Shown here piece by piece: positions 36,559-39,746 of a stretch of DNA of 64,000 bases. The stretch's first letter is position 1, and each line of letters starts with the position of its first letter. Location: the sequence record MT764206.1, one strand, 5' to 3'. Both the position numbers and the translations under genes were made by a program. The DNA is from Escherichia phage JEP6. The notes beneath the pieces are model-generated. The model was given only the letters and a program-made list of their open reading frames with translations. It did not search any database and had not been told where the DNA came from.

Positions 36559-36586
36559 AAAAAGCCCCAACCTTTTGGCTAGGGCT
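36559..36586 (-). terminator. intrinsic terminator (10-bp stem, AAAA loop, T5)
   Basis: minus-strand AGCCCTAGCC-AAAA-GGTTGGGGCT followed by TTTTT, just downstream of CTS-protein gene. Confidence 0.65.
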
Positions 36587-36593
36587 AAGAATG

Positions 36594-37067
36594 TTATTTG
36601 ATTTGTTTAGCAGACCAAATGCGGTCTTTAATAATTTTTTGGATGTCTTCAACATACTCAAGAGAGTGAGCATGTGGGTTATCTTTGAAACTATAAGCAC
36701 GAGCTAGCTTTTGGCCTTCAGTTTTGATTACTAAAAGCTCTTTAAGGATAGCTTCATATTTAGCGATAATTCCTTTAACAATATTTTTTTCTTGTGCAGC
36801 TTTAGGATCTGCTTTAGGCGCAGGTTTACCCGAAGCCTTTGCAAAAGCAGCGCCAGTAGCAACTAGACTTTTCCAGGCCATACTAACTGCATTTCCCGTA
36901 AATCCTTCTGCTTTCATGTCGCGAGCAAATTGGAATCGTGATTCGTCAGAAGCATCTTTATAGGAATATTTACCCGCTGCAATGGCTGCTTTTGCGACAG
37001 CTTGAATTTCGGTGCTAGATGCTTCATTTAACACCGCTTCATTTAAAAATTGAGCATATGATTTCAT
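36594..37067 (-). CDS. internal-protein-like gene with capsid-targeting sequence (IPIII/IPI-type)
   Basis: 157 aa; N-terminal MKSYAQFLNEA resembles the CTS of ipII (MKTYQEFITEA); late promoter upstream. Confidence 0.6.
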   Translation of the reverse strand: MKSYAQFLNEAVLNEASSTEIQAVAKAAIAAGKYSYKDASDESRFQFARDMKAEGFTGNAVSMAWKSLVATGAAFAKASGKPAPKADPKAAQEKNIVKGIIAKYEAILKELLVIKTEGQKLARAYSFKDNPHAHSLEYVEDIQKIIKDRIWSAKQIK

Positions 37068-37107
37068 CTTATTTCCTGTTTTAATTCGTGGATTTAATAT
37101 ACTACTA

Positions 37108-37115
37108 TATTTATA
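37108..37115 (-). promoter_or_regulatory. late promoter (TATAAATA on minus strand)
   Basis: exact TATAAATA about 40 nt upstream of CTS-protein gene start, between tRNA-operon terminator and the gene. Confidence 0.5.
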
Positions 37116-37117
37116 CT

Positions 37118-37145
37118 AAAAAGCCCCAACCTTTCGGTCGGGGCT
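37118..37145 (-). terminator. intrinsic terminator of the tRNA/stable-RNA operon
   Basis: minus-strand AGCCCCGACC-GAAA-GGTTGGGGCT (10-bp stem, GAAA loop) followed by TTTTT. Confidence 0.7.
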
Positions 37146-37454
37146 AAGCCTTGCGGCAACCTTGTCGGGGTTCCACCTGCTAAGGCAAGTGTTTGTACGA
37201 AACGCCGGGATTCGAACCCGGTTATTAAGTAGTTGACGCTACTCAATATTTTTAAAAGGCCATATCTCGACCATATCCGAACGTTCCGTCAAAAACGCTA
37301 CTCGGCTTATGGCAAAGATATTTCCTCGAATCGATAATTCGGTGCGCCGTTTCTGCTGTGATGTAAGAGGGCATCAATAAACGTAAAGATTATTAACGCA
37401 ATTCCTTACTCAGGGAACATCAGTCCGACGACTTACCGGTAGCGACCCGGTTTC
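37146..37454 (-). ncRNA. putative stable RNA region (like T4 species 1/2, RNA C/D)
   Basis: about 300 nt without ORF between ORF 37455-37805 and the terminator, on the tRNA strand; contains tRNA T-arm-like hairpin CCGGGTTCGAATCCCGG; exact ends undetermined. Confidence 0.4.
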
Positions 37455-37805
37455 TTAATATTCTTTTAAAGAATCAATATATTCACGGCGTTTACGCCAC
37501 AAATCAATTGCTTCATACGCGGATTCAGCATTTCGAATTAGCCGGCATTTATGTAAAGACTTATGATTTTGATATTGTGTAGATAACGGAATTGTATCTA
37601 AAAGGTCTTTACGATCAAAATATTCGTAACCATCTAAACCAAATGAACGATTTTTGAGAAATTGCCAATGACCATATTCGTTTTCGACATAAACATAATC
37701 TGCATGCTGATAAAGCAAATTAATTACACGTTCAGAAATAACAGTATCATTATGATTAAAATAGAATGTTAAATCATGAACTACTAAATAAACATTACCT
37801 TTCAT
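37455..37805 (-). CDS. hypothetical protein inside the tRNA operon
   Basis: 116 aa from ATG 37805 with GAGGA RBS; track start 37853 would overlap tRNA-Arg. Confidence 0.45.
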   Translation of the reverse strand: MKGNVYLVVHDLTFYFNHNDTVISERVINLLYQHADYVYVENEYGHWQFLKNRSFGLDGYEYFDRKDLLDTIPLSTQYQNHKSLHKCRLIRNAESAYEAIDLWRKRREYIDSLKEY

Positions 37806-37823: not shown

Positions 37824-37900
<77 letters not shown>

Positions 37901-37903
37901 TAA

Positions 37904-38569
37904 TTAAAATTTCATTTTTCGACCTTTAAACCATCCTTCTGGAATTGGGTCAGTTTTCTTAATACGTTTAGAAACTTTTTCATCTAATGAATGAATCCAC
38001 ATCATACCAAATTGGGAATTCTTTTCGCCCTGTTGGTGTTTATTTCTGGCGTGAGATTCTTTCATTTTATTAATAGTTTCAGGAGTATGATGCTTATTTA
38101 AAAATCTGCTATTATTTAAAAATTTTTCCCTGTATTCAGGAGTTGACCACAAGCGTTTAAATACATTTGAACCATGTTTACGATATTTTTCTTGAAGTAA
38201 AATATCATTTTTAAAACGTGACTTAAACGATTTAGCTCCTTTTAAACTAGCGTCTTTCTTCTGGTTTAGCATCCCAGGAATATTTATATGATCCCATCCA
38301 CCTTCACCACCTAATTTCAAATTATAAACATCAGGGCGCTTTAAAAACTCTTCAGTCACAATATTCTTTTCTGACTCAAACATAGAGGTTTTATCGTCAA
38401 AGAACTCTAATATTTCTTTAGAAAAATTTTCTATACCATACTTATCTTGGGCTCTTTTTAATAATTTACCAGAACCCATATATCCATCATCTAAATTTTC
38501 GGTAGAATGCACACCAATATAAATTTTATTATTAATTTTATTTGTTATTTTATAAGTGTAATGGAACAT
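37904..38569 (-). CDS. segB: GIY-YIG homing endonuclease (SegB-like) within the tRNA cluster
   Basis: 221 aa; N-terminal YTYKITNKINNKIYIGV...GYMGSG GIY-YIG motif; located between tRNA-Ile and tRNA-Arg. Confidence 0.7.
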   Translation of the reverse strand: MFHYTYKITNKINNKIYIGVHSTENLDDGYMGSGKLLKRAQDKYGIENFSKEILEFFDDKTSMFESEKNIVTEEFLKRPDVYNLKLGGEGGWDHINIPGMLNQKKDASLKGAKSFKSRFKNDILLQEKYRKHGSNVFKRLWSTPEYREKFLNNSRFLNKHHTPETINKMKESHARNKHQQGEKNSQFGMMWIHSLDEKVSKRIKKTDPIPEGWFKGRKMKF

Positions 38570-38610
38570 AAATATCTCCTATTTCTAAGAGTATTTATGT
38601 TCCCAAAATA

Positions 38611-38682
38611 TGGCCCTGGGTGGAATTGAACCACCATCTGGCGATTATGAGTCGCTTGCTTGAACCTTCCAGCTACAGGGCC
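38611..38682 (-). tRNA. tRNA-Ile (anticodon CAU; lysidine-type AUA reader, Met not excluded)
   Basis: manual fold: acceptor GGCCCTG/CAGGGCC, anticodon loop CTCATAA, T-loop TTCAATT; no encoded CCA. Confidence 0.7.
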
Positions 38683-38688
38683 TTGATA

Positions 38689-38761
38689 TGCTGATTGACG
38701 GAATCGAACCGCCGACGTCCTCATTACAAGTGAGGTGCTCTACCTACTGAGCTAAATCAGC
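38689..38761 (-). tRNA. tRNA-Thr (anticodon UGU)
   Basis: acceptor GCTGATT/AATCAGC, D-arm GCTC-AGTAGGTA-GAGC, anticodon loop CTTGTAA, T-loop TTCGATT. Confidence 0.85.
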
Positions 38762-38768
38762 GAAATTA

Positions 38769-38855
38769 CGGAGGCGATAGGATTTGAACCTATGAGTCGC
38801 CGGAGCGACTGCCGGTTTTCAAGACCGGTGCATTAAACCACTCTGCCACGCCTCC
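38769..38855 (-). tRNA. tRNA-Ser (anticodon UGA), type II with long variable arm
   Basis: acceptor GGAGGCG/CGCCTCC, anticodon stem CCGGT/ACCGG with loop CTTGAAA, long variable arm, T-loop TTCAAAT. Confidence 0.8.
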
Positions 38856-38857
38856 AG

Positions 38858-38931
38858 TCTCCGTGGCAGGATTTGAACCTACGACATTCTGCTCCCAAAG
38901 CAGACGCTCTACCAAACTGAGCTACACGGAG
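38858..38931 (-). tRNA. tRNA-Pro (anticodon UGG)
   Basis: acceptor CTCCGTG/CACGGAG, D-arm GCTC-AGTTTGGTA-GAGC, anticodon loop TTTGGGA, T-loop TTCAAAT. Confidence 0.85.
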
Positions 38932-38941
38932 TAAATTAAAT

Positions 38942-39015
<74 letters not shown>

Positions 39016-39020
39016 AAATT

Positions 39021-39107
39021 TGGTGCGAGAAGTGGGACTCGAACCCACAAGGAAATCATTCCGCAGCATTTTAAGTGCTGTGCCTTTACCAATTTGACCA
39101 TTCTCGC
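39021..39107 (-). tRNA. tRNA-Leu (anticodon UAA), type II
   Basis: acceptor GCGAGAA/TTCTCGC, anticodon stem CAGCA/TGCTG loop CTTAAAA, long variable arm, T-loop TTCGAGT, CCA encoded. Confidence 0.8.
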
Positions 39108-39113
39108 GTTATA

Positions 39114-39746
39114 TTATTTATTACGTGAAAAAGACTGTTCTATCAATTCTGGACACTTTCGTTCTATCCATTTTCTAGCTTTTTGTGGGCTTATACCTAT
39201 TATTTTAGCAGCTTTACTAACCCATCCAAATTTAGAATAATCGATTTTAACTAATTCTTCGTAAATTTCATCAGTTAAAATCTTTTCATTAATATTTACC
39301 AGTAAATGATATAATTTGTTATCATTAGCAATTTTAATGAATCTTTTATAGTTTCCGCCTTTACTTAAACCTAATGAAGTAATTGCAGATGATATAGTAG
39401 CCGAATTTAATAATGCGTTTAAAATTTCTTCATCACTAACATTATAACGCTTTTTATTATTTTTAATATTTTTACCAGCAAAAGTATCAGTTTGCGAGTG
39501 ACAGTTTGGACATAATAATCTTAAATTTGATTTAAGATGATTTTTGTTATTTCCATCAATATGGTCTAATTGCAGAACAATATGCTTATTTTGCCATTTT
39601 GAAATTTTACAAATTGCACACTCATATGGAAAAATATTTTCTTTTATTATTTTGTCTTTCAGCTTTCCTGTGCTAAAATTTGGGTGTTTTCCTTCAAAAA
39701 TTTCAGCTAATTTAGTATCCATAATATGATTCCCAATTATTAACAA
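39114..39746 (-). CDS. HNH homing endonuclease (Mob-like) immediately upstream of the tRNA cluster
   Basis: 210 aa; HNH motif LQLDHIDGNNKNHLKSNLRLLCPNCH. Confidence 0.7.
   Translation of the reverse strand: MLIIGNHIMDTKLAEIFEGKHPNFSTGKLKDKIIKENIFPYECAICKISKWQNKHIVLQLDHIDGNNKNHLKSNLRLLCPNCHSQTDTFAGKNIKNNKKRYNVSDEEILNALLNSATISSAITSLGLSKGGNYKRFIKIANDNKLYHLLVNINEKILTDEIYEELVKIDYSKFGWVSKAAKIIGISPQKARKWIERKCPELIEQSFSRNK

Follow-up and report, generated by a model that had tools for sequence, protein, structure and literature searches.

Probable orthologues of the T4 stable RNAs D and C at the distal end of the tRNA operon of Escherichia phage JEP6

Two small RNAs at the end of the tRNA operon

The transfer RNA (tRNA) operon of Escherichia phage JEP6 ends in a non-coding region that very probably encodes two small, processed, stable RNAs, which the sequence identifies as orthologues of RNA D and RNA C of bacteriophage T4. 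The region was analysed within a 64,000-nucleotide (nt) stretch of sequence record MT764206.1 (the window); coordinates are window positions, and rnaD, rnaC, the trailer, the terminator, and the tRNA genes all lie on the minus strand. The rnaD orthologue (37341–37458, 118 nt) is 97.5% identical to T4 species 2 RNA, and the rnaC orthologue (37196–37334, 139 nt) is 98.6% identical to T4 species 1 RNA, with a 6-nt spacer, GAAUUA (37335–37340), between them. Both the locus and the two RNAs as elements have been known since the T4 work of the 1970s. The T4 reference record (NC_000866) places rnaD (119 nt) and rnaC (139 nt) at 70908–71171, in the order tRNA-Arg, rnaD, rnaC, terminator, gene e.8.

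Homology to T4 extends over the full length of both RNAs. In rnaD, 115 of the 118 aligned positions are identical, the differences from T4 being one 1-nt deletion and two substitutions; in rnaC, 137 of 139 bases are identical, and one of the two substitutions turns a G-U pair into an A-U pair. The covariance model built for rnaD (R1) scores the window copy at 132.5 bits and that for rnaC (R2) scores its copy, the only one in the window, at 178 bits. Placement agrees as well: rnaD lies immediately 5′ of rnaC, and rnaC lies distal to the tRNA cluster on the same strand, followed by a trailer hairpin and a terminator, so that order, strand, trailer, and terminator are all as in T4. An earlier sequence-only reading had proposed that this location corresponds to that of RNA C and RNA D in T4, and since the window aligns base for base to T4 rnaD and rnaC, that interpretation was correct. 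Its span of 37146–37454 holds both RNAs, but by alignment to T4 the first base of the unit is 37458, 4 nt beyond that span on the upstream side, and 37146–37195 is trailer that lies outside both mature RNAs.

Tests for proteins and tRNAs

Both RNAs are conserved structured RNAs and are neither proteins nor tRNAs. For the 139-nt rnaC segment, the predicted folding energy is −50.6 kcal/mol (z = −5.2), which none of 200 shuffled sequences equalled or bettered, and the z-score for the whole 351-nt stretch is −7.2. Folding of rnaD alone is weaker (z = −2.2; 4 of 200 shuffles equal or better). The view that the distal end of the operon is non-coding, structured sequence is confirmed.

ARAGORN detects no tRNA or transfer-messenger RNA (tmRNA) in 37146–37458, and nothing in the stretch reaches the gathering score of any Rfam family, with RF00005 (tRNA) unmatched. 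At E≤10, Rfam returns chance-level matches only, such as a tRNA-Sec-like match of 17 bits at 37197–37289 (gathering score 47), and no Y RNA or YrlA match. The tRNA-like domain with tag-peptide frame that marks a tmRNA is likewise found by neither ARAGORN nor Rfam. Rfam 15 holds no family model for either rnaC or rnaD.

The stretch has only short open reading frames (ORFs): two of 50 and 41 amino acids (aa) on the minus strand, both TTG-started, and one of 34 aa on the plus strand. From 37455 to the terminator, where the earlier reading had noted no ORF on the tRNA strand, no frame reaches 60 aa. That the region encodes small proteins is extremely unlikely. The presence of these 34–50-aa frames speaks for it, as does the observation that many deposited T4-like GenBank records carry coding sequence (CDS) features labelled 'hypothetical protein' over the rnaC/rnaD region. 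The minus-strand frames, however, depend on TTG starts, and 1-nt indels among close homologues, including one between the window and T4, break any frame. Variation among homologues tracks base pairing and not codons. The minus strand has frequent G-U pairs, which the opposite strand would turn into A-C mismatches. Curated records of T4, RB3, RB7, and RB68 annotate rnaC and rnaD at this place. No conserved open frame with homologues was found for the 34–50-aa ORFs, of which no protein database search was made. Because of the 1-nt indels, the pairing-linked variation, and the minus-strand G-U pairs, the 'hypothetical protein' features are probably mis-annotations.

Structure of rnaC

A consensus fold for rnaC was derived from an alignment of 23 distinct homologues. 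From the 5′ end, it begins with a 7-base-pair (bp) acceptor-type stem (CGAUUCG, 37333–37327, with CGUUUCG, 37204–37198) and a 3-bp helix leading to arm I (37326–37257), which is long and interrupted and is capped by the hexaloop UUGACG (37287–37292). An A-rich linker of about 9 nt leads to hairpin II (37246–37225), a stem of 9–10 bp with the hexaloop CGUCAA (37233–37238). The T arm (37205–37221), with its 5-bp stem and canonical 7-nt T loop UUCGAAU, comes next, followed by the 3′ acceptor strand and a tail. The hairpin CCGGGTTCGAATCCCGG that had been recognised from sequence alone as resembling a T arm is present at 37221–37205 and is the T arm of rnaC. The lack of a complete cloverleaf in the region, in agreement with ARAGORN and Rfam, is also explained, since of the tRNA elements rnaC has only the acceptor stem and the T arm, with neither D arm nor anticodon arm.

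Covariation across homologues, a check that had been proposed for this region, was run and supports both the rnaC fold and that of rnaD. In rnaC, 98.3% of alignment cells at paired positions are paired and 28 of the 42 pairs have changed on both sides, values that none of 500 shuffled alignments reach; controls in which the structure was slid along the alignment are 36–43% paired. The T stem covaries between CCGGG/CCCGG and CCUGG/CCAGG, and the T loop has the consensus UUCRANY. The acceptor stem covaries between A-U and G-C: it is CGAUUCG/CGUUUCG in T4 types, with two U-U mismatches, and CGGUUCG/CGUUCCG elsewhere, while the Jiaodavirus-type stem is fully Watson-Crick (CGGUAUG/CAUACCG). The 3′ tail reads UACA(A) in T4 types and U followed by CCA (UCCAA) in Marfavirus and Jiaodavirus types. 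An 11-nt receptor for a GAAA tetraloop (CCUAAG/UAUGG) was considered for arm I and rejected, the segment being an ordinary covarying helix.

The acceptor-like stem stacked by a canonical T arm constitutes a tRNA 'minihelix', in which the D and anticodon arms have been replaced by a long arm and a hairpin, and rnaC is thus a tRNA mimic without any anticodon. Comparable tRNA-like processing substrates are tRNA minihelices, mascRNA, and the viral 3′ tRNA-like structures. With tRNA itself, rnaC shares the 7-bp acceptor-type stem beside a 5-bp T stem, the UUCRANY T loop, a discriminator-like U followed by CCA or ACA, a location in tRNA arrays, and a leader like that of pre-tRNA. In contrast to tRNA, it has no D arm, anticodon arm, or anticodon, its body consists of two hairpins with complementary loops, it fails tRNA models, and most of its members carry two conserved U-U mismatches in the acceptor stem. 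In the reverse comparison, the rnaC covariance model matches genuine tRNAs at about 20 bits, which quantifies the tRNA-likeness of the rnaC ends.

The bacterial Y-RNA-like YrlA RNAs carry tRNA-mimicking modules, bind Rsr/Ro, and occur in some phages. Like them, rnaC is non-decoding, has a tRNA-like T arm and an acceptor-like stem, and is found in phages, but it lacks an Rfam Y-RNA match and no Ro-binding helix was recognised in it. Its E. coli host range also argues against Rsr as a partner.

The terminal loops of arm I and hairpin II are complementary in all 23 distinct homologues. The pair is UUGACG/CGUCAA in most, UUGGCG/CGCCAA in Marfavirus, and UUGCAG/CUGCAA in the Jiaodavirus type; these differences represent three compensated substitutions of base pairs, spread over two independent lineages. 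The hexaloop duplexes have nearest-neighbour energies of −5.5 to −7.6 kcal/mol. Metagenome contigs show these three classes again, and a metagenome scan for rnaC 3′ ends yielded no fourth loop class and one unrelated match (L070). Because the hexaloops are Watson-Crick complementary and co-varying, they most likely form a 6-bp kissing helix, which could act as a latch within one molecule or join two molecules as a dimer. Against this contact it must be set that its support comes from two independent lineages only and that four of the six pairs are invariant. Kissing complexes are familiar from ColE1 RNA I/II, the HIV-1 (human immunodeficiency virus 1) DIS element, and TAR/TAR*. As in these, rnaC has two fully complementary 6-nt hairpin loops in which co-variation keeps all six pairs; it differs in that both loops sit in one 139-nt RNA, which leaves room for either an intramolecular latch or a dimerisation contact.

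Two rnaC variants on IMG/VR contigs (L046, 5951–6106; L065, 4194–4349) have a non-canonical, palindromic T loop, UGCAUGC, and, in the basal internal loop, CUCG in place of a GG that is invariant elsewhere; this co-change represents a single event. It hints that the G residues of the basal loop play the role of a D loop. The two changes could possibly mean that the T loop co-varies with a D-loop-like element or, alternatively, that it mediates a dimer.

Structure of rnaD

For rnaD, 24 T4-type homologues were used together with 13 diverged ones that were aligned by covariance model. Among 36 distinct homologues, 98.1% of cells are paired and 15 of 23 pairs are compensatory, although these counts come from a model-fitted alignment, which flatters the structure. 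On this model, rnaD is a bent rod: a 5′ hairpin is followed by a closing stem, the internal loops are invariant, CCC forms a bulge, and the tip varies. All five stem pairs of the 5′ hairpin P1 (37451–37435) covary. The closing long-range stem P2 (GUCGUCG, 37432–37426, with CGGCG-C-AC, 37349–37342) ends about 1 nt from the annotated rnaD 3′ end and shows one G-C to C-G swap, in Moonvirus. The internal loop GACUGA/GAAA is invariant in T4 types and is replaced in Karamvirus. P3 comes next, and then the CCC bulge, which lies in UUCCCUG (37417–37411), of which UCCCUG is universal among homologues. Beyond it are P4/P5 and the variable apical hairpin, for which Vequintavirinae, Karamvirus, and Jiaodavirus have a conserved loop, CCCUCAACGAU. 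A kink-turn was considered for the GACUGA/GAAA loop and does not fit.

It is very unlikely that rnaD is a self-cleaving ribozyme, for example a hammerhead-like one that frees the upstream tRNA. In favour of such an activity, T4-type rnaD lies directly behind a tRNA and its internal loop holds CUGAUG...GAAAC; the covariation-backed fold, however, has two helices at this loop where a hammerhead has three, and the three-helix arrangement around a CUGANGA / GAAA / UH core is not present. The Vequintavirinae copy A5-4b has an A where a hammerhead needs G8, the loop sequences are replaced in Karamvirus homologues, and no ribozyme family of Rfam matches at E≤10.

The surrounding transcription unit

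The window is Tequatrovirus (T4-like) DNA: by megablast, the 401 bases around the two RNAs match 743 phage records, the best match being Salmonella phage SG1 (99.8% identical). ARAGORN and Rfam find seven tRNA genes on the minus strand at 37824–39107, in the T4 order Leu, Gly, Pro, Ser, Thr, Ile (read as CAU 'Met'), a segB-like ORF, and Arg. The segB-like ORF, of the GIY-YIG type, occupies 37904–38569 (minus) and precedes tRNA-Arg (UCU; 37824–37900, minus), the last tRNA gene upstream of rnaD. The tRNA set (37824–39746, minus) is not identical to that of T4: the tRNA-Arg sequence differs, and the place upstream of tRNA-Leu, in which no tRNA-Gln was found, is taken by a 210-aa ORF (39114–39746) with a weak match to HNH endonucleases.

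Two differences of context set the locus apart from that of T4, namely an RB69-like ORF before rnaD and an ORF cassette with a duplicated terminator after the operon. The first, a 116-aa ORF (37455–37805, minus; phrog_3355), is of unknown function, has no Pfam domain, and lies between tRNA-Arg and rnaD, its stop codon overlapping the 5′ end of rnaD. RB69 (ORF150c) and phiC120 likewise have an ORF of about 115 aa between the same two genes. In T4, rnaD begins 2 nt past tRNA-Arg; here, it does not abut that gene, a difference of context that leaves the RNA itself unaffected. The 5′ end of rnaD in this phage therefore does not come from the tRNA-Arg 3′ processing that would serve in T4.

Downstream of rnaC, a 3′ trailer (37146–37195, minus) contains the hairpin CACUUGCCUUAGCAGGUG at 37191–37174 and would be cut away during maturation if T4's annotated ends hold here. 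The transcription unit of the tRNAs, rnaD, and rnaC ends at an intrinsic terminator (AGCCCCGACCGAAAGGTTGGGGCT plus a T run; 37118–37145, minus), a hairpin with a 10-bp stem that includes seven G-C pairs; this is the strong terminator of the sequence-only reading. Trailer and terminator together are 94.9% identical to the sequence that follows rnaC in T4. Two copies of the heptamer CCCCGAC lie on the minus strand of 37118–37170, one in the 5′ arm of the terminator and the other about 28 nt upstream. With two possible pairing partners for the 3′ arm of the terminator, an alternative fold that does not terminate transcription is conceivable.

Beyond the terminator lies a 157-aa ORF of unknown function (36594–37067, minus; phrog_2280), preceded by a late-promoter-like match (TATAAATA; 37115–37108, minus) and followed by a near-copy of the rnaC terminator (36586–36563, minus). 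T4 lacks this cassette (36563–37115) at the corresponding spot, and it looks like an insertion flanked by duplicated terminators.

Distribution and modularity

BLASTN detects the rnaC/rnaD pair in about 800 phage records; except for one Pseudomonas-named record, these belong to phages of Enterobacterales. Neither RNA matches any of 5,426 complete E. coli genomes in BLASTN searches, so neither a homologue in the host nor a copy in a prophage can be detected.

Each RNA is a module separable from the other, and both are always found within or next to tRNA clusters. On its own, rnaC exactly occupies the space from one tRNA gene to the next in Kagamiyamavirus EcS1 (Phe|rnaC|Trp), Moonvirus (Met|rnaC|Gly), and Karamvirus (Trp|rnaC|Gly). 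In Dhakavirus, rnaD directly follows tRNA-Arg and is itself followed by a T4-type trailer, as if rnaC had been excised. In two Vequintavirinae (rV5-like) phages, rnaD comes directly after tRNA-Met and tRNA-Tyr, with two copies in A5-4 (L009, 602–727 and 1496–1639), which differ in their apical hairpins, and one in A73 (L005, 1486–1610). These copies suggest that modules of a tRNA plus rnaD have moved horizontally between Straboviridae and Vequintavirinae. The T4-type rnaD covariance model also finds diverged rnaD in Karamvirus (in the gap from tRNA-Asn to tRNA-Asp), Moonvirus, Marfavirus, and, weakly, Jiaodavirus; rnaD and rnaC thus co-occur in most genera without being adjacent. A scan of IMG/VR with a relaxed rnaD pattern returned 43 loci, most of the new ones being chance matches; among these new loci, the covariance model confirmed only L049, L053, L056, L057, L063, and L065.

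Other tRNA-free gaps of 100–250 nt are seen in the tRNA clusters of Karamvirus and Jiaodavirus (L032, L006, and L038), such as the one downstream of the rnaD-like element and ahead of tRNA-Asp, and the one from tRNA-Gln to tRNA-His. More small RNAs that have escaped annotation may lie in them.

In Mosigvirus AV115 (OR352945; L089, 1453–1535), the 3′ half of a predicted tRNA-Asn (GUU) consists of the rnaC T arm, acceptor strand, and trailer. This fusion looks like the product of a recombination at the T loop in which rnaD and the greater part of rnaC were deleted, and it may be a pseudo-tRNA, since its acceptor strands seem non-complementary. That such T-loop recombination does happen, together with the tRNA-like ends of rnaC, is what could be said for regarding rnaC, and perhaps rnaD, as a decaying tRNA gene or a functionless scar of recombination. 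This explanation is nevertheless highly improbable: rnaC is 83–86% identical in nucleotide sequence across genera, every helix and the loop-loop pairing have been kept by compensatory changes, and discrete RNA species accumulate in T4.

Expression, processing, and function

RNA C and RNA D were detected in T4 as discrete RNAs of the late class by RNA sequencing and northern blot in a dual-omics study of 2022. Papers of 2010, 2022, and 2025 call their function unknown, as the sequence-only reading had also stated, and a literature search for a recent functional assignment or an anti-defence role of either RNA found none. In a T4-like phage evolved on semi-permissive E. coli, the one single-nucleotide polymorphism (SNP) common to all three sequenced lines was in rnaD. 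By its published coordinates, it falls in the variable apical hairpin, about 41 nt away from the 3′ end of rnaD.

In the proposed pathway, rnaD and rnaC would be co-transcribed with the tRNA genes, and RNase P would cleave on the 5′ side of the rnaC acceptor stem, at the same time freeing the 3′ side of rnaD. This cut is proposed because a conserved U at −1 and the A/U-rich leader AAUUAU before rnaC resemble pre-tRNA; the leader is the same whether rnaD (...CACC) stands upstream or, as in other genera, the ...CCA end of a real tRNA. The 3′ sides of both RNAs would then be trimmed back to their terminal stems, with removal of the trailer and terminator. For T4, work of the 1970s–80s from the Abelson, McClain, and Apirion laboratories reportedly described processing by RNase P and found phages with deletions in the tRNA region to be viable.

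What the mature RNAs do is a matter for tentative proposals. In one, rnaC would act as a non-decoding tRNA mimic that engages host factors reading the acceptor/T-arm half of tRNA, with processing, CCA-adding, or modification enzymes, tRNA-directed toxins, or defence nucleases as candidate targets. As the usually co-occurring partner of rnaC, rnaD would contribute to the same end, and together the two would give a host-dependent, non-essential advantage. This functional reading, of a tRNA mimic and its partner acting on the host's tRNA-directed machinery, is put forward with low confidence.

A second proposal, which is possible if somewhat more doubtful, is that both RNAs are purely cis-acting: folded spacers that guide the order of cleavage by RNases P, E, and III or block 3′ exonucleases, and that persist as stable by-products. 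Such a role would account for their constant placement in or beside tRNA clusters on the same strand, for the resemblance of rnaC to an RNase P substrate, and for the natural phages that do without one RNA or the other. Their position within the cluster varies, however: it is at the end in T4, inside the cluster with Trp and Gly as neighbours in Karamvirus, and behind Met or Tyr in Vequintavirinae. In addition, a protein gene parts rnaD from the tRNAs both in the window and in RB69. Moreover, single-stranded segments and loops are invariant across genera beyond the needs of a spacer, a body with kissing loops is too elaborate for a processing signal, and on a new host rnaD came under selection. 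The role preferred over that of a spacer is an accessory one, trans-acting and directed at the host, because of the cross-genus conservation of unpaired segments, the restriction to enterobacterial phages, the mobility of rnaD, the loss variants, and the shared rnaD SNP.

Several points weigh against the tRNA-mimic proposal and the identification on which it builds. The RNA ends used for JEP6 are carried over from the T4 annotation, and T4-type rnaC ends in UACA instead of CCA. Dhakavirus is without rnaC, and AV115 is without rnaD and most of rnaC; since natural phages lack one or both RNAs, any function must be accessory.

A more specific form of the tRNA-mimic proposal, and a distinctly unlikely one, holds that rnaC is a decoy latched by its kissing loops that shows only the acceptor/T-arm face, with rnaD, which has spread to the unrelated subfamily Vequintavirinae, as a second decoy or a cofactor, the two being RNA-based determinants of host range or counter-defence in enterobacterial phages. 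The targets of the rnaC decoy would be host enzymes or anti-phage toxins acting on this face, for instance nucleotidyltransferase or acetyltransferase toxins, acceptor-stem nucleases, or the CCA-adding and RNase P machinery.

Significance

Few gene products of the best-studied phage have gone unexplained for as long as RNA C and RNA D. The locus in JEP6 adds no new kind of element, and its interest rests on the unsolved function together with the kissing loops, the minihelix, the modularity, and the missing Rfam model. A covariation-backed fold for each RNA turns 'function unknown' into testable hypotheses: the loop-loop contact of rnaC would be breakable and restorable by two point mutations, and its minihelix face predicts recognition by RNase P and the CCA enzyme. 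Natural variants that lack one RNA or the other offer a further handle on function, and the evidence obtained here indicates that rnaD moves between phage subfamilies along with tRNA genes.

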